Program-made: the position numbers and the translations under genes | Assembly: GCA_021613535.1 (NCBI GenBank) | Contig: CP075495.1 | Span: 7,750,001-7,814,000, forward strand | Length of the DNA: 64,000 bases | From: Adineta vaga | Taxonomy: Eukaryota; Animalia; Rotifera | Direction: 5' to 3' | Notes under the pieces: model-generated | Seen by the model: only the letters and a program-made list of their open reading frames with translations | What the model was told of the DNA's origin: nothing | The model's database searches: none | Shown here: piece by piece, positions 1 to 33,211 of the stretch | Layout of the letters: every line of letters begins with the position of its first letter | Numbering within the stretch: position 1 is the stretch's first letter

Positions 1-1507
1 TATATAGAGTTTTGCACTGATCTTTCCATTATTTGAAAACCCCCAAGAAGCAACACGTGCTTGAGCAAGTAATTTCTTTCGTCCATTGAGTTTAAATGTG
101 GATTTTTGTTGAGTATACAAGATATAACGACCGCCAGCATTTAAATTTATATCTGCTTTCAAACTTTCAGTTGATCTAACAACAAATTCATTGGATTGCC
201 ATGGACCACCGATAACATTAGTTCCTTTCCACTCACCAATACCATTCGAAAAATTATAAAGAATTGCACTCGATGATGGTGATGCTGTGGCTGTACCAGA
301 TCCAGTATTACTTTCACCATTTAAACTAATTTTTCCACGATTAATTATTTTTGCATCATTGAAAAAAGCATAAGCATTTTTATTTCGAATTGGTGACCAA
401 CCATCATTCCAAGCTAGGAAATACGCAACTCGAGGAAAAACTGATTGTATTGCTGATAACCTTGAACAGATTACATCCATTGAAATCCAATATTTGATCA
501 AAAAATACGACTTACCATCGAGTGTAATCAAATTGACCATTAGTATTTTGTGGACCAACTTCTGCTAATGCAAATGGTTTATTTAAACGTACCATTTCTT
601 GATAACCTTTCATGGAATTCTAGAAAGGAAGATAGTTTATATTTGAATATGATTTATAAATGAGATAGGCCAATTTTACTTACTGGATCATCGACATAAA
701 CATCAAGTGCAACAATATCAACATATGCATCACCTGGATAAAATTTCGATGGATTGCTTCGACTTTGATCAGGTGAATAAACCCATAGAATATTATGTAA
801 ATTTTTAACATTTGTTAAATAATTGAACATATCTTTCCAAACATTCTTGAATGTATCCGGATTCTAAAAGGAAAACATCCCAAAATGATCATTGATGAGT
901 AAAGAAAATTGATTTCTTTTACCTGATTACACCAATAGAACCAATCTCCATTCATTTCATGTAATGGACGAAATAGAACAGATACACCAGCTCGTTGTAA
1001 ATCATCTAAGCCTTGTGCCATTCTATCGAGAAAGAGACGCCACCGATTTCCAGTCTCAGTAGTAGGCTTAGTTAAATCGGCAAAATTTAAATTCATTCGA
1101 TCTTTATAACCACCTCCATTAGCTGAAACTGGATTTGGTAAATGCATATTTATTGTTACAAGACCACCTTTATTCCAATGATCTTTTAATGCAGGATTAC
1201 ATGTATAATCAATGATATTTTGTGGTGGAGTTTTATAATTCCAACCACAAGCATAATCACAACCAAGTATTGCAGGTACTTGACCAGTTTGTCCAGCAAT
1301 TTCATTGATTTGTTGAGTATTGAATGTGTCAGGACTATAACCGGCAAACTGACCCGATAGAATTTTACCTTGTTTTGGTAAATTTGCTATATAAGCAAGA
1401 ATTTGTTTTGTTTTTCCATTTGCTGCGCCATCGGCAGTTTGCTGTGCAAAACACAAATTAATTGTCGCTAACCCCACGATTTGAATGAAAAACACGGTCC
1501 AATACAT
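1..1507 (-). CDS. Secreted GH26 beta-mannanase with C-terminal CBM59-like module; 4 exons visible, 3' end outside window
   Basis: Signal peptide MYWTVFFIQIVGLATINLCFA; GH26 acid/base motif VLFRPLHEMNGDWFYW and nucleophile motif KPFALAEVG. Exons 1507-923, 863-684, 619-516, 460-1 are joined by GT-AG introns that keep the frame. After a Ser/Gly/Thr linker comes LYNFSNGIGEWKGTNVIGGPWQSNEF..SLKADINL..ARVASWG..SAKLYI, resembling CBM59 of Bacillus mannanases. Confidence 0.92.
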
Positions 1508-2296
1508 TTTTATCAAATTAAATACGGCTTTTCGATTTACTACATGTTGCTTATATAGCAGACAGTCACTTGATTATATCACAATAGTAACAAGGTCAAT
1601 CGATATCATATTCGTTCTTTTTTTTATATATTCATTGAAATCATGCTTATTGGCTTAGTTCTCTGCATGGTTTCACAGCTCGATAGAAGACTCCAGATGC
1701 ACTTGTGTATTATATAAGCATTATATGAAGTATTAAAAGCGTAGGCTTCTGTTTTTAAAATCGATCGCAGGGATTTTCTCATGAATATTTTTAACTGATG
1801 GAAAATAAAGACACAATGCACTTGTTTATATCATATCACAAAAAAACAACAACATATGAAATAGTTGCTGAAGAACTTCATTTTAAAGAAGAGTCAGAAG
1901 TCTTAGAAATACTGGTCGGACTTTTTTTTTAGACAAAAACAAACAAAGAAATTTATATTCAAGTTTTCTGTATAGTAAAGAAAAAAAGGCAAATTTTATT
2001 CTGTTGTTTCTTAATTCTGAGTTTTTTTCTTATTTCTTTTTTTGCCTTTCTTCACTACCGTAGGCATCACGTTGTCATTGTGATGTTTGTTTTACGTTGT
2101 TAGCTGTTTGTATACTGTCTCACTTTAATTTTAAGAAAGTAATAAACAACACACCTGTGTACAAATTATTTTTCTTTTTCTATCAAGAAAGCTTTAGATA
2201 TTCAACTGTGGATATCTAAATCAAAGAGAAAAGAGGAAAATACTATCAACTATTTTCATAGATAAGTTATTATTCACTTTCATATCCGGTGTACAA

Positions 2297-3659: not shown

Positions 3660-3725
3660 CAAAAAAAAAGAAAAGAGTTAGATATATGTGTATTTATCGA
3701 GATGAAATGATTTAATAAAATAAGT

Positions 3726-6383
3726 TTAACATTTTCCACATCGATGAAGACATTCGAAAGCAAATGTTTCACTTTCTTGACATAATGATTGATTTTCCAA
3801 ACTACAAACTTCAGAATCGATATCCGGTTGTGCACAATCAACTAGATAGAAGAAAAATAGAATAATATTGTATAGAGAGAGATAGAGAAAATTTATTTCA
3901 CCATTTTCACATTCACGTCCATATGTATTTTCTAAACAATAGCAAAAGCAACCATCTTCTGTTTCAGGTGTACCACCATTTCGACAATTGAGTGAACAAC
4001 TTCCTGAAGATGATGTTACAGTAGTTGTTAAAGAGGCTATCAGAACATATTTTCATTAGATAATAAAATGAAAAGTTTGATTTCTGATTCTTACCCATAG
4101 TGCTAAAAGTACTAGTGGTAGTAGTAGGTCTGGTAGAAACAGTTGTTGTTGTAACTGTATATTATTTAGAACGAAACAAAATTATCAATTTCAATAAATC
4201 TATTATTACCTGGAGGACTAAGAACAGATTCCGCTGCATATCCATTACATTTATGACCAGTACAAAAATATGTTTCAATCCCATTATAAGTGCTTACAGC
4301 TTTCGATGGTCCACAATTCCACCAACAACAACGTCGTTCGATTATTGCTATTCATTTTATAAATACATAATAATACAATGATATCTCAAAGATTACTTTG
4401 ATCATCGGGATTTCGATAAACCATACATTTTGGACAATTCATAGACATTGATGAACCTTCTCTACCACAATCAGATCCGGAACAATCGAAACATTGTGAT
4501 GATGATGGTTCAGTAGTAATGGTAGTAGTCATAGTTGTCGTTATGGTGGTACTCATTGGAGTCGTTGTTATTGATGGTGCTCTTGTTGTCGGGGTGGTGG
4601 TGGTGGTGGTTACTAGTGTAAGAGGTTGTACAACATAAGTTCCATTTACTTCTATTCAATGTTACCTGCAGGACTGAGAGTAAATTCTGCACCGTATCCA
4701 TTACATCGATCACTGGAACAAAAAAATGTTTCAATACCATTATAACGACTAACAGAATTCGATGGTCCACACGACCATCGACAACAACGTCTTTCGATTT
4801 TTGCTATAAATATGATCGATAGAAAATTATTTATTTGTCATTCAATTTTTACTTTGATCACTTGGATTTCGATAAACCATACATCTGGGACAATTCATGT
4901 ATATCATAGAACCATCTCGACCACAATCAGCGCCTGAACAATCGTAACATTGAAATGATGTTTGCGCAGTTGTAGTTATGGTAGTCATCATTGTTGTTGC
5001 GGTTGTTACAGTTGTAACTGTTGTCATCGGTACTGTCGCCTTCGTTGTTGTAATCACTAACATAAATAAGAACATAATAGTTACGAATTTTATCTGCTAA
5101 AACATTACCTGCAGGACTGAGACTAGATTCTGCACCATACCCATTACATTTATGACCAGTACAAAAATATGTTTCAATCCCATTATAAGTGCTTACAGCA
5201 TTCGATGGTCCACAACTCCACCAACAACAACGTCTTTCAATTTTTGCTGGAGAAATTATGAACAACGAGCTGGTATGCTTCAAAGGTTAATTTATATCTT
5301 ACTTTCATCATCGGGATTTCGATAAACCATACATTTTGGACAATTCATAGACATTGATGAACCTTCTCTACCACAATCAGATCCGGAACAATCGAAACAT
5401 TGTGATGATGATTGTTCAGTGGTAACAGTAGTAGTAATGGTTGTTGTTGTTATGGATGTTGTGGTCATAGTTGTAATTGATGGCGTTGTTGTTTCTACAT
5501 AGTGTATAAAAATCGATATTATATTCACGTTTTGTCTTTTCTAATTATTACTGGGTACACCGAGTGCATACTCTGCTCCATATCCATTACATTTGTGACC
5601 AGTACAAAAGTATGTTTCAATCCCATTATAAGTGCTTACAGCATTCGATGGTCCACAATCCCACCAACAACAACGTCTTTCAATTTTTGCTGGAGAAATT
5701 ATCAACAACGAGCTGGTATGCTTCAAATGTTAATTTATATCTTACTTTGATCATCGGGATTTCGATAAACCATACATTTTGGACAATGCATAGACATTGA
5801 TGAACCTTCTTTACCACAATCAGATCCGGAACAATCAAAACATTGAGAGGATGATTGTTCAGTGGTAACCGTAGTAGTAGAAGTAGCTGTTGTTGTTGTC
5901 GTCATGATCATCGTCGAAGATGTTGACGTGGTTTTACTAACCGATGAATCTAAATAATCGACATGATTTCATGAGTAATTTATGAAGTCATTTCTTTTTA
6001 AATATATGCTTACTAGCAGAAAGAAAAATTTCTTCGCTACCAAGTCCATTACATTCATCAGTATCGCAAAAATAAGTTGGTCGACCAGCATGTTCAGATA
6101 TTTGATTTGGAGCTCCACATCCCCACCAACAACAGCGTCGATCAAATTTATCTTAGGAAAAAGAAACAACAAGAAATCAATCAGTTTTGATTCTCATTTT
6201 ATTCTATCTACCCGGAGTATCTTCATTACGAAACACCATACACATCGGACAATTTGATGCAGTTGCCGTACATGATTGTTCATTCCAAGCTGAACATTCA
6301 TAACATTTTAAACCTTCACATGGTATTGGAAAACTTATGAAAGTAACAAAGAATAGAGCAATCACAGCTGAGACAAACATCAT
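3726..6383 (-). CDS. Secreted multidomain protein: signal peptide, five 10-Cys Ly6/three-finger-like repeats with Thr-rich mucin linkers, EGF-like domain, C-terminal ShKT-like domain
   Basis: Signal peptide MMFVSAVIALFFVTFISFPIPCEG then LKCYEC..; repeat consensus QCFDCSGSDCGREGSSMSMNCPKCMVYRNPDD|KIERRCCWWxCGPSNAVSTYNGIETYFCTGHKCNGYGAE; EGF CSLNCRNGGTPETEDGCFCYCLENTYGRECE (~3905-4000); last exon 3841-3726 DCAQPDIDSEVCSLENQSLCQESETFAFECLHRCGKC*. Confidence 0.85.
4210..5850 (-). repeat. Intragenic tandem duplication of a ~440-bp exon+intron module (four closely related copies)
   Basis: Near-identical blocks such as tcgggatttcgataaaccatacattttggacaat and tttcaatcccattataagtgcttacagc recur at ~440-470 bp spacing; the introns at ~5250-5302 and ~5690-5745 are almost identical. 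Confidence 0.9.
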
Positions 6384-6518
6384 GTTTTTATTTCTATGTT
6401 GCAATATTCGATTAGCATCATTCGTTTTATTTTTATTTATAAAATACTAAGCTCCACCTCCATTTTAATTGTTTTTCAGTTTTAAAGAGAGAAAAAAAGG
6501 CGTTTTATTGACATATGC

Positions 6519-11953: not shown

Positions 11954-13508
11954 TGTCAGCTGTTCTGTCCACAATCTCATCTTCATCAATTATTCCCAAA
12001 CCAGTTATAGACGATAAATTTCAACTATATTACGTATGTTTATTTTACCTATGATTGAACTGTAATTTTTTGACAAAATTTTTATTTATTTTAATTAGTC
12101 TTCTACTATAAATGGTAATAACAGTCAACATATCGATGAATTTCGTCTTCATCATCAACAATTATTTCAGTCAACGTTCTCTGATATTTCTTCGAATCCA
12201 AACTATTATTTATTTATCATTCTAGTAGAAGGTATCATCTTCTATTCTTCTGAAATAGCGGTATACATATATCTTCATATCTTTCTAAACGAAAATTTTC
12301 TTTGAAATCCTTTAGAAAGATTATACAGCATCAATGATTAATGAAATGCGAAAGTTTTTATCAACATTTCATATATATATACGAAAACGTACAACAAAAT
12401 TGATTGATGTTATATCATTCATTTCCAAAACATCACTTCCATCGTATACAATCGTTCATACAGCCCAAGGAAGTAATGTCGGAGTACTTTTTCAACATTG
12501 TCCAAAAATAGAATATTATCTCAATTCATCAATGCCTTTCAATTCCATTCTGGCTACTTCTGAATATTCGACATATTCTATCTCACCCGAAGAACTTCGT
12601 TATTCTGATTATTCATTGAATGTGAAATGTCAAAATCATGTTACTGGTGGACTTTCAACATCTCTACATGTATCACAAACACCACTCGGAATAAATGGAC
12701 TCAGACTACGTACATCTATATCTTTTCCTACTTTACATTCATCACCAATTGTTTATCCACATACGGAAGGTAACTAGAAACAATTGAAAATATATCAATA
12801 GATGAAAGTGTCATTTTTCTAGATATGATCTATCGTCAAACTTATCCTTCATTTTGGAGCGTTGATTTCAATTTAAATGAAAACAATGATGCTTTATTCC
12901 ATAGTACATCACTTGACAAATCTACACCAGAATATTTATTTGTTGAACGTACATTTCATCGAACTCTAAGTGATAAAGAAAATCAAATCATTGCTGTAAG
13001 TACACTTTGTCATAGGATCAGATCAATACACTTATTCTCTGATTAGATTGAACGAATACAGAATCTTCATTTATGGGAAAAATTTCGTTCACATCGTGGA
13101 TATATGCGAAGAAAGAATGGTCAAGATAATATTAATGAAGATTGGTTATTTCATGGTACAAATTCTGACAATCATCATCGTATAATTTCTCATGGTTTCA
13201 ATCGTTCTTATTGTCGAGAAAATGTTTTCTATGGTCGTGGTGTCTATTTCAGTCGTTTTGCAGCTTATTCAAAATCCTATGGTGATCGTCAAGATGTGTC
13301 ATATCTTTTCCTATGTCGTGTACTTGTTGGTTATCATACATATGGAGAAAAAAATATGCAATTTCCTCCACAAATTACTCTATCAAAAGGTACACAAATT
13401 CAAGCAGATTCAACAACTGATCATCAAAAACCTTATGGAATTGTATGTACATTTCATGATGATCAAAACTATCCCGAATATATCATAACATATATGGATA
13501 AAAAATAA
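11954..13508 (+). CDS. PARP-family (ARTD) ADP-ribosyltransferase, probably mono-ART (PARP11/12/14/TIPARP-like); 5' end uncertain
   Basis: Exons from 11954 splice in frame to IERIQNLHLWEKF..WLFHGT..GFNRSY..FYGRGVYFSRFAAYSKSY..LFLCRVLVG..YGIVCTFHDDQNYPEYIITY. The triad is H-Y with a hydrophobic residue instead of the catalytic Glu. Confidence 0.85.
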
Positions 13509-23360: not shown

Positions 23361-24343
23361 TCATGCTTTTGCCGATCCCATTGCACCAATCAGTTCTTTC
23401 AATATTCCCATCAATGCAACAAAATCTCGAAATTGAAGAACACCATCATGATCTGTATCCACCATCTCGAACAATGCTTTTGCAACATATTTACTTACAA
23501 AATTAAGTCCCATTTCTTCTAGCATTATCTCAATATCTTCCACTGTTATCTTTCGATCATTGTTTTTGTCCAATACTTTCCACTACAAATAAAATGACAC
23601 AGATGCAAAATGAGAAGCATTAGAATAAGTCAACAGATACTCACAAGAAAATACATTTGTTTCACATTTCCAAACTTTCCACTTTTCACTTGAACGTTTG
23701 CTGCTGATGATGATGATGGCTTGGCTTGAGTGGAAACATCATAGCCATGCTGTGAAAGAACTTGTTGAGCTGCATTGAGATAAGTATTGAGTCGACCTTT
23801 TGCTGTGTTTGCTTTGGTAAGTGGTTCATGAAGATCGTCAGGAACGAGACGCTTAAGCCAGTTGTCAAGTGAAGTAGGTGGTGGTTGTTCGGTGAGATTT
23901 TTGGACCAATCAGTGAGCCAAGTGGAGAGATTGCCTGATAGAGCATCATTAGTGATGGTTGTATCAGGTATGACATTAGTATTGATTTCATTCGACGAAT
24001 GAAGACCGATGGGAGTCATATGTTGCATCCAACTTTTGACATCGGTTGGAATATTTCGTTTTGGTAGTTGTTGTGGCTCAGGTACTGATGCTGGATTTGG
24101 ATCGTCTAAATGAAGTCGTAAACTTGTAATCCAGTTTTGTACATCACCCGGTGGAATGATTTGTTCATTGTTATCTGTTTTATTTGGATCAGGATGTTCA
24201 AATTCTTCAATAATCAATGCTTCCGTATCCTGATGAAATTTTTCTACGTATTCATGGACGTCAGCAATTCCTGCATTGACAAGCATACGATTGAGTACAC
24301 CATTGTTAATATCTGTTTCAGTTAACTTTGCTAAATTTTCCAT
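23361..24343 (-). CDS. EF-hand protein paralog A (306 aa): Trp-repeat N-terminal region plus two C-terminal EF-hands
   Basis: Exons 24343-23645 and 23582-23361 (62-bp GT-AG intron); loops DKNNDRKITVED and DTDHDGVLQFRD; no signal peptide. Confidence 0.85.
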
Positions 24344-25264: not shown

Positions 25265-25522
25265 CTATTGACATGCAGTTAGAAACCTTTTGGGACATTT
25301 CATTGATGCAATGGAACATTTAAGCCAATTCTTCGATGCGAAATCTACAATGAAATTGAAAGATGTATGAAAAGAATCTAAAAAAGCTCCATTTAATGAC
25401 TTACATTCTTTACATTCTTGTTCAGAAAATGAACTTAAACTTCCTCCTTCAACAAACTTTGTAACTTGCATAATGATAATTGACAACACGATAAATAATA
25501 GAAGACGAGAGTAGATCGACAT
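25265..25522 (-). CDS. Secreted C-x18-C peptide 1 (65 aa precursor)
   Basis: Exons 25522-25405 and 25344-25265, phase-1 intron in a Tyr codon: MSIYSRLLLFIVLSIIIMQVTKFVEG-GSLSSFSEQECKEY|FASKNWLKCSIASMKCPKRFLTACQ*. Confidence 0.8.
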   Translation of the reverse strand: MSIYSRLLLFIVLSIIIMQVTKFVEGGSLSSFSEQECKECKSLNGAFLDSFHTSFNFIVDFASKNWLKCSIASMKCPKRFLTACQ

Positions 25523-25581
25523 AGTATTATATTATTAATACTGGAAATAAGTCGTAAATTTCAACGATAAGAAACGAATAT

Positions 25582-26055
25582 ACGTCTATGTCTACAATTT
25601 AGTAGCTTTTATATGATCAAACTCTGACAGACGAATAAGAACCTTTTACGTGATTCATACGTCCATGTTGAAAAAATGCATTTCCTACAAAATAATTACA
25701 TTAAACTGGTCACCTTTTGACATTACGTATTCAAACGTTTTGATATATGATATTTGAAATTCTCCAAGTAATATGACTTACCTTACGTCACTTTTTTATT
25801 GATTAAGCTGATTTTATGTAATGTAACCTGATCAAGTTAACGAAAGAAACATGATATTTGTCATATTGACAGTTTCGGGCGAAACAAAAATTATATATGA
25901 TTTTTCAGGTGAAGACGTAAATTATTACTCGGAATTCGCTACATGGCAATTAAAGAAAAAGAGTGTAGCTAAACAAAAATCATGACTACTTTAAATATAG
26001 TGTAAATGTCTGGACGTTAGTATAACGTCGCACAAATTTGTGAACCAGTCGACGT
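25582..26055 (-). promoter_or_regulatory. ACGT-core (bZIP/CRE/PAR-like) site cluster and TATA-like box upstream of peptide 1
   Basis: Ten ACGT cores (25582, 25648, 25659, 25725, 25735, 25785, 25915, 26014, 26025, 26052), four as TTACGT; TTATGTAA near 25814; minus-strand TATAAAA near 25607-25613. Confidence 0.5.
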
Positions 26056-27095
26056 TTCCTATTGGTAGCATAGTGGTAATTTCGACAGTCAAGTATCACA
26101 AGTGAAGAACATATGAAACGAAATCAAATGAAACCGTACCATTGATATTTTGATTTTCTTGAACGCTCATTCTATACTGTAATAGATTGGTCTCTCAGCA
26201 GTAGGGTTTTGTGTGATGTAGAATGAAGTATGTAGTAGTTAAATACCATCTGAAAGTAAATTCTTCGCACAATTACATTTCAAACAGCTATGTGAAGTAA
26301 TACCATATCTATATAGCAATATGCAGCGGGAAAGGGTGAAAGTAACTTTGATTCTTTCTTTTAGGATTTGCTACTAACCAATAGTTTCATTTTGTAATCA
26401 ATCAAAGAATATTTTTATAAAAATGTACCTCGAGTTTCATTACTTAGCTGACTTCTTACAGGCAATGCTATTTCACGCGTCTGGAGAAACTGCTCGTTCG
26501 ATTTCATATTATCGGACAAACATTTTTTAAACGCTCAATGTAATCGCATGTGCTGGATTAATATAATTTCACAGAGAGCCTTAATGATTAGAAGAGAAAA
26601 AGCACATCGGATGTCGTACAATGAATTATTCCAACTTTTTCTCTTTGTTCGATTTCTCCTCAAACAGTAATATCATGAATGCACGTCTATTCAAAGTATT
26701 CAATATGACTCATGTTTTATACTTTCCCTATCTCTTTTCTTCTATCATTAATAATATTCCTATTCATATCAAAGGAATATGTCATTACCATAAAATATCA
26801 TTCATGACTCATGTGTTTTTACTAGTTTTCTCTCATATTTCTAAGTAGTTATCTTATCCATAAGCATCTCAAGTCAAGATACTTACAAACATTAATCAAA
26901 TAAATACTACTATCTGCTTTGGATAATATTAAAGAAGTCCTATGCATAATATTTGTTTTGTTCATTGCACTTGCATTTTCATTATTCCATATCACCATCG
27001 CACAAATAGACACAATTCCATCGATCGATTTATTTACTCTCTTTCTAAAAACTTGAAAAAAATCACAAATAAATAAAAATACTACATTCATTTCT

Positions 27096-28198
27096 TCATG
27101 CTTTTGCCGATCCCATTGCTCCAATCAGTTCTTTCAATATTCCCATCAATGCAACAAAATCTCGAAATTGAAGAACACCATCATGATCTGTATCCACCAT
27201 CTCGAACAATGCTTTTGCAACATATTTACTTACAAAATTAAGTCCCATTTCTTCTAGCATTATCTCAATATCTTCCACTGTTATCTTTCGATCATTGTTT
27301 TTGTCCAATACTTTCCACTACAAATAAAATGACACAGATGCAAAATGTGAAGCATAAGAATAAGTCAACAGATACTCACAAGAAAATACATTTGTTTCAC
27401 ATTTCCAAACCTTCCACTTTTCACTTGGACGTTTCCTGTTGATGATGATGATGATGATGATGATGGCTTGGCTTGAGTGGAAACATCATAGCCATGTTGT
27501 GAAAGAACTTGTTGAGCTGCATTGAGATAAGTATTGAGTCGACCTTTTGCTGTGTTTGCTTTGGTAAGCGGTTCATGAAGATTGTCAGGAACGAGACGCT
27601 GAAGCCAGTTGTCAAGTGAAGTAGGTGGTGGTTGTTCGGTGAGATTTTTGGACCAATCAGTGAGCCAAGTGGACAGATTGCCTGATAGAGCATCATTAGT
27701 AATGGTTGTATCAGGTATGACATTAGTATTGATTTCATTCGACGAATGAAGACCGATGGGAGTCATATGTTGCATCCAACTGTTGACATCGGTTGGAATA
27801 TTTCGTTTTGGTAGTTGTTCTTGTTGTTGCAGTAACGTTTGTTGAGCAACACCATCTACTTGCGGTCGTATTCGTTTAATCCAATTTTGAATATCTTCAG
27901 GAGTATTTTCTTTTCTTTGTTTTTCCTGTTCTTTTAGTACCGATAGTTGATTAGAGTTGCTAAGGTTAGGTCGAAAACCACTAATCCATTGTTGAATTTC
28001 AGCTGGTGGAATGATTTGTTCAGTGTTCTCTATTGTTTCACCGCCAGAAAGTTGAAACTCTTCAATGATCAATTCTTCTGTTTCATGATGAAAATTCTTT
28101 ACATATTCTTGAACATCAGTGATACCTGCCTTTGCCAACATATGAATAAGTGCACCATTGTTAATATCTGTTTGAGTTAGATTTTCTAACTTTTCCAT
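27096..28198 (-). CDS. EF-hand protein paralog B (346 aa)
   Basis: Exons 28198-27380 and 27317-27096; EF-hand exon encodes the same protein as paralog A; ~40-aa insertion carrying an extra PEDIQNWI repeat. Confidence 0.85.
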
Positions 28199-28522
28199 TG
28201 TTTATTGATGATCGATAGATACTAAGAAAATTGTCTTAAAAAGAAATGTGAAGATGTGTTTCTTTTATACTTTAAAATAACGCAAATGTATTTATCATTC
28301 TACTTTCTAACGTCACGAAGAAACGAAAACAAAAGAGTGCACTACAACTCCTACATAAGTATTACTGATGAGTCATACATTTTAGCGATACTACATATAC
28401 TATATTTTATTTATTATTCAAAGCAGTAACTAAAGATAAGAAAAAGAAAACTACTGTGTGATTAGATATTGTAAATATGATCAGGAGAGCGCTACGAATG
28501 TTTATTTTTTTAGTTCGAAGAT

Positions 28523-29322
28523 TTATTGCTGAGCACCACCAAATTCGCCAGAAAGTTTGTTTAAAATAGTAACTAATGCCATAAGATCAGTGAAATCAAG
28601 TGTACCGTTATGGTTTTTATCAACTGCTTGAAATAAAGCTCGTGCTAAATCTAAACACAAAGAATTCAATATGATAAGAACAGATTGTCAAATGAATACT
28701 AACATGGTGAAACAAAACCAAGTCCTGTTTCTTTCAGATAGATTTCTATATCTTCAACAGTTATTTTTCCATCTCCATTTTTGTCAAATTGTTTGTACAA
28801 AGCATACATCTTTTGAGCATTTTGATACGTTGATCCTTGAAGAGAAAAACATGCACGCGATATAGTGTTTGTTTTTGTAATCATTTTTTTATTGCATACC
28901 GATATTATCAAGAAAATTGCCACCACCACCACCACCGCTGCCACTTTGATCACCGGAAAACATTTTATAAGCTTTCATTGCACCTTGTACCATATCAAGA
29001 GAATTATTATCACCGCTCCTACCACCAGAAAACTAAATGAAAAATCGAACAGAATGTTAAACTTAAAGTTAAAGATTATATCTGTTTATTTATTTACTTG
29101 ATTTAACATTGAACTTCCCATAGAAAATAGATTTGCTTGTTGACCCGATGCATGACGAACTGATGAGTCTTCATCAAAATCACCATCATTATGACTTTGA
29201 GCAGACGCTTCGTTACGAAATTGTTGTACAAACGAACCAACATCATCGATTCCTACTTGTTCGAGCATATTATTTAACATGCCTTTTTGTAATTGTTCAC
29301 GACCGAAATTAAATAAATTCAT
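28523..29322 (-). CDS. EF-hand protein paralog C, Gly-rich middle region (4 exons)
   Basis: MNLFNFGREQLQKGMLNNMLEQVGIDDVGSFVQQF..|FSGGRSGDNNSLDMVQGAMKAYKMFSGDQSGSGGGGGGNFLDNI|GSTYQNAQKMYALYKQFDKNGDGKITVEDIEIYLKETGLGFVSP|xLARALFQAVDKNHNGTLDFTDLMALVTILNKLSGEFGGAQQ*; aligns with A/B at both ends. Confidence 0.85.
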
Positions 29323-29760
29323 CGTATTTTATTTTTATCTAAAAAATACGATATATTGAAACTGAATAATATGCAATGAAGGAGAAGGAAAACGAGCCGA
29401 GAAACAACAAACGATCTATCTGAATGTTTTGCATGTTGTTAGAACACGTGCGTTGAATGATTATTTTTTCGCATTACGTTTCTACAATGAATAATAACAA
29501 ACAAATACTTTTCTCGAAATAAAATGACTCGATATTACGACTGACATATATCGATTACTAATGCACACCTGTCAGATTTCAATGTATACTTTACAATAAG
29601 ATGCTGTCTTTCTTTCTGTTCTTTACTCTAGAAGCGTATGAAAAACGAGAGAGAAATTTTAAAATTTATTTCTTGGTTGACAGATACAATGAATGAAAGA
29701 GAATTCTGCGATACAAATGCATTTAGATAATATATTTATCATCCGATTCTATTGTTTTTT

Positions 29761-30021
29761 TTAGTTCAAAATCGATTTTGGAGGAGTAAGCATTGCTTTT
29801 AATGCTTTTTTCGCTATGCCGTGACATAAGATAAAAGCCAGGCCCATAGTCTGAATATCTTTTGAGTTCACATCTAGAAATAAAGATACTCAACGAGAAA
29901 CAATGTCACAGTATGACTTACAAGCGATACATTCTTGTTCTGTAACAGTTCCAGAACCAAATGAAGCACTATGTATCAATAGAAGACAAGAGAGAAGTAT
30001 CAAAATATTGAATAGTTTCAT
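29761..30021 (-). CDS. Secreted C-x18-C peptide 2 (70 aa precursor)
   Basis: Exons 30021-29922 and 29873-29761: MKLFNILILLSCLLLIHSA-SFGSGTVTEQECIAY|VNSKDIQTMGLAFILCHGIAKKALKAMLTPPKSILN*. Confidence 0.8.
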
Positions 30022-31471
30022 GATTGAAGATTCTAAAATGAAAGAAATGGTGATTTTATTTCTAGTATACAGGCTGTATATACATATATATATATACAAT
30101 GAATGACTATGTATAGGAATTAAAATATGATGAAGAAGACCTTTTAGTTGGAAATTTCGTGCTTGAGTGAAGAAATTTGAATCTGTATAAATATTATATC
30201 GTATGAATAGGTTAATTACTTCTGAGTCCTAATTCAAAGGTACGTATTAAATTTCATTCTGAAAACAGAAAATTTTGGAGTATTTGAAGTAGTTGGAGAA
30301 ATGGGAGAGAAAATAATTATCTCAGTTTGAGAAATATTCACACTAAAACAGATCTAACAAAACTGTTTCTTCTATAAATATCAAAGTTTAAATGTCTGAT
30401 AATTATTCATGGGGAAACGTAGAGAATATAGTGGGAAAATATAAATAAAACATATTGCATTGTAAAATATTATTTACAAGTTCTTTTTTCCATAACGATA
30501 TCTAATCAGGTAAACAGAGATACGGTTACAAGAAAGTATTCGGTTGAAAAGGTTGAGATTACTAAAAATAAATTTTGTTTTCTTGACTTTCCCATATGTA
30601 TATCAATGTATTGAGTTCATTTGTAAATCAATCTCAGTGAGATATTCCCATCAAATTATCATTCATACCTTATGATCTGGATTTTTTTTGTGGAAACTGC
30701 CAACACAGACTTCCGTACTAAAATCGAAGTATGTTTCATTGGATTGTTGTATTGATTTGTTTCAATCCAATTGTAGGGACGAAGAGATCAGTTTCGTCAT
30801 GCTTCAATGCAATTTATGATATTTTCGAAAAACACGTTCTTTCAATGAGAAGTTGTTGTTTTCGGCCACTTCTATCATTGGACATCTACTTATCCTATGA
30901 GAAGAAGCGCAGATGTGTAAGAAGATAGTTGATGAAGTGAAGATTGAAGTACAATTACAAAAATACGAATCTCGACACAATAGTTCTAATCAATCTATTT
31001 TCATGATAGATTCGATGACATTTTCAAATCAATGAACGTCTTCTGTGCTATATGAACTTATCTATACTTATTACAAAATTCAATCAATTTTAATATTCAA
31101 AAATTTCCTTTAAAATGATATGTTCTCATATTTAATAATCTTTCGAAGACACTTGACCATCCTTGTTCATGCTTTAAACAAGTCCATTTACTTTTATCTT
31201 GGCTTCTTGCCAGTTTATCGAAGTGTATTATAACGGAAGAATAAGAAGAGAAAAGAAATGAGGTTGTTTGACATTGAGACATGTTTTCATTACTATTTTG
31301 TTAATTAGTTTATCATAACTGTTTTTCTTTTGGATTTTACATCATTCAACGAATATTTATTTTTCCTTCGAACGATATAAGATTACAAAAGAAACGACTT
31401 GTTTTCGGTATATTAAGTAACATAATCTAACCTACGAATGTGAAATTTTGAGTAGTTTTGTTTTTTTCATT

Positions 31472-31804
31472 TTACCAAAAGACATAAAAATCATCGAGTT
31501 CTTCATCAGCATATTCTTCTTCGAGTACAGATCGTTTGGCGATTGAAGATTTCATTGTTCTAGTGCTTGGTCGCCACTTTTTTGGGCATTCAAAAAATGC
31601 TCGTATTCGTTGATTAATGTCATCCGATTTCAAATCTAATAATAAACAAATAGACATTACCAATTAGAGGATCTAAATTAGGTTTCTATCAGTGTACTAA
31701 CAAGCTTTACATTCACGTTCGCTTAATGTTTCCATTATTGGTAAACTATGAATAGTCACTACGATCAAGACCAACAGAACAAACAATTCCAAACGAATCG
31801 ACAT
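31472..31804 (-). CDS. Secreted C-x18-C peptide 3 (88 aa precursor) with KR site and acidic C-terminal piece
   Basis: Exons 31804-31702 and 31635-31472: MSIRLELFVLLVLIVVTIHS-LPIMETLSERECKAY|LKSDDINQRIRAFFECPKKWRPSTRTMKSSIA-KR-SVLEEEYADEELDDFYVFW*. Confidence 0.85.
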
Positions 31805-32877
31805 TATAATTTTGTATGTATAGATTAGATCAAAATAATGAGAAGTATTTGAATGTTACTCACGATAGTTCGTATTGTTGCTGAGCTATCTGATGTAGTG
31901 ACTTGTATATATAGGATTACTGTATTATTTATATTCTACGTTAAAGCAAAGCGAGAACGCATTGTTGAAGTGCCATTGTTTTCAATAGAATATGTGAGAA
32001 ATATACTGCGAAGAAAGAAATATGTGCGTATAAGAGATAGAAATTGAAAAGAAAAAAGAACTAACTGTTCGTTGTCTAAAAATACTATTTTCCCATTAGA
32101 ATTCAATGTGTGGAAATGAAAAAAGCCGAAGGGAATTTTTCAAATGTTTTTTGAAAACAATTCATTTCTTTTAATGCTTTTTTGTTTTCGACGAAGAATA
32201 CTGATAAAATATATTACTGAGAGATACTATTTAGTTTATTCACTGATATTAACTCGTCTGATTGAAAGAAAGCACGAATTGAAATGAACATTGTATTTTC
32301 TTCTAACAATAGGAACGAATCAATCATTCTTAGGTCTGCTCGGTTAGTTTTTGGTACATATAGTTATCAGTTATAGATCAGAACAAACAACAGATACACG
32401 AAAAATAGTTCACATTCTATAAGTATTCAGTGCAACTGACAAAAAGAGATATCGATGATTTTCACAAGATCGTAAAAGTTTGAAACTCAAAACATCTTTG
32501 TTAATAACAATGAATTTCAAAAGTTAACGAATTCTCAAGCCTTTCACTACAATATTGGATTTTGTAGCATAAGAAGACAAGTATCTTACGATTACTATAA
32601 ATAAATGCATAAGACATTCTTTCATCTATCAGTAGTCGAATGAAACATTTCATACTTCCTTCCATTATTACGCAGTACTTGAAAACGGCACATATTTTAG
32701 CTAGTAACCACTCTGGTATTTGTCTCACATTGTTCTATCTTTCATTTATGCATATATCATCACCTGAAATGACCGAGAATAAAATTTCTATTTAGTATCG
32801 ATATTTTATTTGAATTTCAGTTTAGTCATGTAAGATACAATATTCAAAAGACAGATAAATCTTATACATAAACATAT

Positions 32878-33211
32878 TCATTGAAAACCTGAATGATTTC
32901 TGAGAGAGTGGAATTTTCCATTGGAATAAGGAAGTGATTCTTTTATTCGACGAATATATCGCTTTTTTGTTTTGATTCGCCATTTTTTTGGACAACTAAA
33001 GATTGCTTGTAATTTTTGGTTCAAATCATTCGATGCAAAATCTAATATAAAATAAACAACCAAAGTTCATCAATTCAAATTGAAGAATATGTTTTTTGAA
33101 ATACTCACAAGTTTTACATTCATTTTCTGTTAATGGACTGATATAGTTTGAACTATGAAGAGGAGCAATTAATAGAGTAAAAATAATTAAAAGATAAAAT
33201 TTTGAATACAT
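32878..33211 (-). CDS. Secreted C-x18-C peptide 4 (88 aa precursor) with strongly basic tail
   Basis: Exons 33211-33109 and 33041-32878: MYSKFYLLIIFTLLIAPLHS-SNYISPLTENECKTY|FASNDLNQKLQAIFSCPKKWRIKTKKRYIRRIKESLPYSNGKFHSLRNHSGFQ*. Confidence 0.85.

Follow-up and report, generated by a model that had tools for sequence, protein, structure and literature searches.

A key question raised by this locus is whether four short, intron-split genes of the bdelloid rotifer Adineta vaga form a true family of secreted peptides, and whether such peptides attack microbes or carry signals. The genes, here labelled g1, g2, g3 and g4, lie in a 64,000-nucleotide (nt) stretch of contig CP075495.1 (the window, 64 kb), in which an earlier note, made from the sequence alone, had seen a shared frame of two cysteines separated by 18 residues (C-x18-C) behind a hydrophobic leader. 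We find that the four genes are more than chance patterning and that they represent an apparently undescribed family of bdelloid propeptides, conserved and of a generally familiar kind, but with a cysteine frame of its own. Judged from sequence comparison, the products are likely secreted signalling peptides rather than fast-changing antimicrobial peptides; to the specific reading that they are convertase-processed, disulfide-stapled signalling peptides (hormones, neuropeptides or waterborne cues), we assign a probability of about 0.5.

Gene models and transcripts of g1-g4

All four genes are on the minus strand, and their two-exon structure and ATG-to-stop spans agree with those proposed in the earlier note (Table 1). 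Each coding sequence is interrupted by a phase 1 GT-AG intron that splits a Tyr codon as T|AT, exactly as had been described, and splicing yields products of 65 (g1), 70 (g2) and 88 residues (both g3 and g4). The frame cysteines are exactly 18 residues apart in all four products, and the motif PK[KR][WF] follows the second of them in g1, g3 and g4, not in g2, which bears out the reported pattern. Where an intron is read through, its T|GT donor creates an apparent C-x2-C arrangement, which is artefactual. Missed by the earlier note were the two additional cysteines of g1, which has four after the leader (residues 37, 49, 56 and 64), the introns in the 5' untranslated regions (UTRs) of g1 and g2, and the KR site and acidic tail of g3.

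To assess the pattern against chance, a score matrix built from homologues outside the window only was combined with the intron geometry and run over the entire window. The four genes took ranks 1 to 4, with 86, 77, 21.5 and 8.5 bits; the next candidate scored -13, and the best score across 20 shuffled windows was -20.3. No fifth copy was found within the 64 kb by this approach.

Another important question is whether the introns are actually removed. The transcript data comprised contigs of eight out of 19 listed runs, the RNA nature of which was assumed, the record being silent on it for all 19; the runs fit RNA because they show GT-AG joints and poly(A) ends. The coding exons of g1 were joined in three of the four runs covering this gene, and those of g2 and g3 were joined at the predicted sites in five of the eight runs, the five coming from two studies; in run X12, the g2 and g3 introns were retained. 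For g4, none of the eight runs contained a contig bridging the junction. The g4 exon-2 contigs are polyadenylated and carry three unaligned letters past 33041, a length equal to the three exon-1 bases that separate the predicted donor from an allelic difference at 33112, which provides indirect support for the junction. The splice junctions of the earlier note were thus found precisely as predicted in g1, g2 and g3, and remained unbridged in g4.

Two further observations concern the transcripts of g2 and g1. In the dominant expressed g2 allele, the 3' UTR (29653-29760) is sharply unlike the window, with many insertions and loose ends, and the coding part differs by ~4%. The first exon of g1 sits within the 3' UTR of the upstream EF-hand gene (window 25523-27317, minus strand): a 1202-nt intron linking 26886 to 25683 was seen in two runs (X4 and X5), the stop of the EF-hand gene lies 210 nt before the donor of this intron, and a single contig spans the coding exons of the EF-hand gene through g1, with a 320-nt spacer holding 13 ATGs. 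This contig may represent a read-through (bicistronic) transcript or be due to an internal promoter, and the contigs fit either.

Homologues, conservation and placement

Is the family restricted to this locus? Exon 2 of g4 alone, used as a query, gave no candidates, and profiles were required. A first profile of exon-2 pieces retrieved 5 proteins, and a second, to which these were added, retrieved 43 database matches among the 7992 best candidates, including 5 that already formed part of the profile query or nearly matched it in sequence. Six of the 43 bear species names, namely, Adineta steineri (three), A. ricciae, A. vaga and Rotaria sordida, and all six are annotated only as unnamed or hypothetical proteins; the other 37 come from assemblies without a taxon, and the family appears to be bdelloid as far as the six named matches go. 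Correctly spliced full models make up only 5 of the 43 matches, and the 18-residue cysteine spacing is kept in all five. The same intron is indicated in seven read-through open reading frames, since they carry an insertion of 17-22 residues at the same place. In runs X12 and X10, a loose contig end translates to the ten residues after the core of A. vaga UJR22260.1, which is probably a fifth family member elsewhere in the A. vaga genome.

A tree computed from 53 alignment columns of 39 exon-2 regions, with rough support values, separated groups A (containing g3), B1 (containing g4; support 96/97) and B2 (A. vaga UJR22260.1), of which only B1 was strongly supported. This pattern corresponds to three stable groups and not to a burst of variants. 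B1 and B2 may be homoeologues derived from the bdelloid genome duplication, which is mentioned in PMC5818035. The g1 and g2 genes form long branches that the trees do not place and have no close database match. Prokaryote genomes and viral contigs yielded no relatives to single-protein queries, which reach close relatives only, and the ESM Atlas gave no usable match, a result that bears neither on absence nor on novelty. Two metagenome loci (L001 and L002) were rejected as GC-rich bacterial DNA matching on the antisense strand, and one cluster member (P0049) was dropped as an unrelated 489-residue regulator of bacterial type; another (P0065) was outside the examined set.

The degree of conservation differs strongly along the precursor. 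Among seven full-length proteins of the g3/g4 type (21 pairs; three named Adineta species, Rotaria sordida and the window genes), mean identity is 70% in the 30-residue core versus 31% in the leader and 27% in the tail. Among the four window genes, the mean core identity is 39%. The earlier statement that positions outside the frame are highly divergent therefore describes the window genes and fails across species. In 35 homologues with a full core, anchored in the alignment by Cys-Pro, the exon-2 core positions Ser and Ala are invariant (35/35 each), followed by Asp and Phe (33/35 each) and Asn (30/35).

Attempts to place the family among described ones gave no fitting Pfam family. Exon 2 of g3 scored 25.9 (cut-off 25) for the DnaT DNA-binding domain (PF17948) over 36 of 69 positions; this match was treated as chance because the homologues score about 13 bits and the gene is of a spliced, secreted animal type, while the domain is bacterial and intracellular. 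Defensins, macins, mytilins and ShK peptides have frames of six to eight cysteines; with two to four cysteines and no Pfam match, the family fits none of them, and the earlier note had likewise not recognised its frame as one of theirs. Its proposal of one real family outside the described ones is likewise upheld, no Pfam, PDB sequence or fold match having been obtained. We found no description of the family in the literature on bdelloid or rotifer neuropeptides, antimicrobial peptides or secreted peptides, most subscription papers being outside the scope. For the pathogen-challenge study PMC11258130, neither its motif nor its accessions occurred in the 12 supplementary files searched (of 16), and the motif was absent from the De Oliveira and Thiel supplements (PMC8557429, 1 of 1 file, and PMC6425005, 6 of 6, one in part). 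The C-x18-C loop is not among the rotifer families named in the text of the NP-HMMer preprint, a comparison confined to the text, whereas the figures and supplements could hold rotifer precursors.

Candidate functions

These data raise the question of what such a propeptide might do. A hydrophobic 11-mer (Kyte-Doolittle 2.9-3.6, starting at residues 5-8) is present near the N-terminus of all nine full-length proteins and would represent a signal peptide. Of the 41 anchored homologues, 37 have KR or RR no more than 25 residues behind Cys2, and such a site is also present in g3 and g4. In 24 of 42 matches, KR is followed by an acidic stretch ending in [LIVPF]DD[FLS]Y[LIV][FY][WR], which is located at the very C-terminus in 22; the charge of the g3 tail is -8. 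For a ligand held by a receptor, prohormone biology predicts a conserved core, a variable leader, a conserved dibasic site and a fixed C-terminal motif, and a signalling peptide is favoured because the family fits this prediction. Neuropeptide and hormone precursors share with it the leader, the conserved mature core, the conserved dibasic site, the less conserved linkers and the paired cysteines; unlike them, the family has no homology to a described one and mostly lacks an amidation signal. The earlier note had left a choice between defence and signalling effectors: the dibasic sites and the C-terminal motif point to the prohormone type, and the fast divergence that it claimed is found in g1 and g2.

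As signalling peptides, the products would be directed to secretion by the N-terminus, the two frame cysteines would bond and close two short predicted helices, and a prohormone convertase would cut at KR after the CPKKWR motif. The predicted product is a disulfide-stapled helix-turn-helix peptide of ~40-48 residues, which would likely act as a ligand on a conserved receptor. In subfamily A (g3), the cut could also free an acidic peptide of 19-24 residues with a fixed aromatic C-terminus, serving either as a second ligand or as a sorting or masking piece. On this view, the long-standing members under constraint would be g3 and g4, with g1 and g2 as diverged tandem copies that may follow a different path, perhaps with another role.

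Could the precursor instead be a degenerate member of a known hormone family, either of the insulin/relaxin type, with an A chain that lacks cysteines, or of the CRF/egg-laying-hormone type? A B-chain-like helix before the cysteine, a basic linker, KR and a chain of ~19 residues, the length of an A chain, may suggest the former, and there may be a short helical likeness to egg-laying hormone. However, the insulin/relaxin superfamily has a six-cysteine B/A-chain frame, which the x18 spacing and the cysteine-free tail do not match. Across 27 members, there was no Pfam match to hormone families; the tail is disordered in the AlphaFold model, an amidation site is mostly lacking, and the intron is inside the loop and not after it. 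This origin, already unlikely, is in our view very improbable.

AlphaFold predicts, for both subfamilies, a leader helix and then two short helices separated by a four-residue turn (30-37 and 42-51 in one model, 29-36 and 41-50 in the other), in line with the helical hairpin suggested in the earlier note. Cys1 lies within the first of these helices and Cys2 just after the second, and a disulfide between them is plausible on these models. The predicted local distance difference test (pLDDT) value is about 70-78 in the core. The tails are disordered, and the tail compared with the insulin fold has a pLDDT <50. Foldseek gave no match at E<=0.001, a blank left uninformative by the peptide size and by models of low predicted template modelling score (pTM), and a wide fold search (VIA) with the same low-pTM models gave a best Z of 2.4; these blanks are no evidence of a new fold. 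In PDB sequence searches, the best E values were 1.2 and 0.11. Small disulfide-held helical hairpins include protease inhibitors, and a conserved surface on a small stapled hairpin would suit protein binding, be it as an inhibitor, a carrier or a component of mucus, glue or egg coat acting on a partner other than a receptor. Such a binding module is nevertheless improbable: no sequence or fold match to inhibitors was found with these small, low-pTM models, the repeats or low complexity typical of structural secretions are missing, and the conserved dibasic processing and C-terminal motif would be left unexplained.

The distribution of charge and hydrophobicity bears on a role in defence. The net charge of the disulfide loop ranges from -3 to +1, neutral to acidic, and the basic residues sit after the loop; with the core as the most conserved part, the 'hypervariable cationic' character that the earlier note had likened to antimicrobial and toxin arrays is not supported. 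Crudely leader-cut forms have charges of +2 to +4 and isoelectric points (pI) of 8.5-9.5. As a defence peptide, the stapled hairpin would attack a conserved microbial target (a lipid or wall glycan) with its basic KKWR patch, the acidic tail would keep it inactive until cut, and g1 and g2 would be diversifying variants. Arguing for this are the second helix, which is amphipathic (moment 0.33-0.57 in proteins of the g3/g4 type), the charge of +10 of uncut g4 with its very basic tail, the tandem array with g1 and g2 on long branches, and the residue changes caused by six of the nine listed allelic differences in g1 and g2, too few to test selection. According to PMC5577615, the myticalins and modiocalins of mussels share with subfamily A a signal, a basic region, Lys-Arg, an acidic C-terminal extension, a 5'-UTR intron and a multigene family. 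In the same text, however, myticalins are linear and cysteine-free, with a pI >11 and a hypervariable mature peptide behind a conserved leader, whereas here the mature core is conserved and cysteine-framed, and the variability is reversed. A dibasic site with an anionic C-terminal extension occurs in subfamily A only; neither a hypervariable mature peptide with a conserved leader nor a linear, strongly cationic peptide of pI >11 was found. Moreover, a fixed aromatic C-terminus would be needless in a purely charge-masking tail. Defence is a possible but rather unlikely function.

Other disulfide-held hairpins are also only partly similar. The hairpin loop peptides reported in Adineta are, according to PMC13357843, secreted precursors of about 85 residues with two predicted helices joined by a loop and held by disulfides, as predicted here, but their cysteines are six in number and mirrored, and 58-75% of their residues are hydrophobic. 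In our family, there are two frame cysteines (g1 has four cysteines), 35-48% of the residues are hydrophobic and a dibasic site is present. Plant alpha-hairpinins are disulfide-held helical hairpins as well, with four cysteines in two bridges according to the same text and no sequence likeness found.

Several points weigh against the signalling peptide. No likeness to a known neuropeptide family was found, and conservation shows only that a partner or fold is constrained, not that the partner is a receptor. Tandem clustering with two fast-diverged copies fits defence genes too, and the order of signal, basic region, KR and acidic tail is also the myticalin layout (PMC5577615). KR/RR is absent from g1, g2 and 4 of 41 homologues, the amidation signal (G before the dibasic site) is present in only 2 of 41, and the pTM values of the models are low (0.34 and 0.27).

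If the favoured signalling reading is extended, the family might constitute a bdelloid-specific peptide hormone system with a fold frame of its own, in which a single precursor would give a disulfide-stapled helix-turn-helix ligand and, in subfamily A, a second, acidic ligand ending in FYxFW, with g1 and g2 as young tandem copies being recruited to new roles; we regard this extension as tentative, with the odds against it. If true, bdelloids would have their first known signalling family specific to the lineage, and with it a way into the control of dormancy, feeding or reproduction; a defence peptide would instead provide a novel scaffold whose target-binding face is unusually conserved. What is known of rotifer peptide signals comes almost entirely from their homology with families of arthropods and molluscs, an approach to which lineage-specific signals are invisible. 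PMC8557429 describes rotifer peptide signalling as thinly sampled. Gene finders have mostly overlooked or mis-modelled the present family, the genes of which are short and split by an intron, yet it is strongly conserved between Adineta and Rotaria. Its peptides can be synthesized as candidate ligands, to be used in receptor screens and in physiological work on an animal that attracts study because it tolerates desiccation and is asexual.

Features of the locus and neighbouring genes

Table 1 Features of the g1-g4 genes in the window (positions counted from its first letter)
Feature	Position	Strand	Content	Basis
g1 coding exon 1	25405..25522	-	hydrophobic leader, [ST]ExEC, Cys1	RNA contigs
g1 intron	25404-25345	-	60 nt, GT-AG, phase 1	
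g1 coding exon 2	25265..25344	-	remainder of loop with two extra cysteines, CPKRF, stop; divergent member	joint 25344/25405 in X1, X4, X5
g1 non-coding 5' exon	25643..25683	-	51-nt intron to coding exon; 1202-nt intron to 26886	joints in X4, X5
g2 coding exon 1	29922..30021	-	leader, Cys1	gene model and RNA contigs
g2 intron	29921-29874	-	48 nt, GT-AG, phase 1	
g2 coding exon 2	29761..29873	-	loop, Cys2, no PKKW, no KR; most divergent member	joint 29873/29922 in X1, X2, X4, X5, X6
g2 non-coding 5' exon	30669..30762 (5' limit undefined)	-	636-nt intron	joint 30032/30669 in X1, X2, X5
g3 coding exon 1	31702..31804	-	leader, Cys1	gene model and RNA contigs
g3 intron	31701-31636	-	66 nt, GT-AG, phase 1	
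g3 coding exon 2	31472..31635	-	conserved loop, CPKKWR; subfamily A	joint 31635/31702 in X1, X2, X4, X5, X6
g3 KR site	31537-31532	-	within coding exon 2	
g3 acidic tail	31531-31475	-	19 residues, ends DDFYVFW	conservation across homologues
g4 coding exon 1	33109..33211	-	leader, Cys1; outside RNA contig coverage	same junction in annotated homologues
g4 intron	33108-33042	-	67 nt, GT-AG, phase 1	
g4 coding exon 2	32878..33041	-	conserved loop, CPKKWR, basic tail; subfamily B1	poly(A) at 32785
g4 KR site	32964-32959	-	within coding exon 2	

EF-hand genes are intermingled with the peptide genes along a single strand. A pair of EF-hand genes with a long, unassigned N-terminal region and a C-terminal EF-hand pair flanks g1 (23361-24343 and 27090-28204, minus strand); the 3' 836 nt of the two are 96.5% identical and the 5' 230 nt only 76%, a contrast that suggests partial gene conversion. 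A third spliced EF-hand gene, with a Gly-rich stretch, lies between g2 and g1 (28518-29340, minus strand).

Farther away, 3700-6450 (minus strand) holds one or more multi-exon genes with repeated cysteine-rich modules and Thr-rich spacers, mucin-like and Ly6-like by eye, two tested exons of which had no Pfam match. At 815-1573 (minus strand), a leader-bearing gene of glycoside hydrolase family 26 (Pfam E 3.7e-38) likely encodes a horizontally acquired mannanase, and a gene with a PARP catalytic domain is found at 12316-13508 (plus strand; Pfam E 1.8e-18). The region 35273-62318 contains ordinary metazoan genes, namely, WDR90 (CFA20 and WD40 domains), isocitrate dehydrogenase, a Fringe-like glycosyltransferase, a LIM protein and a GCFC-domain protein.

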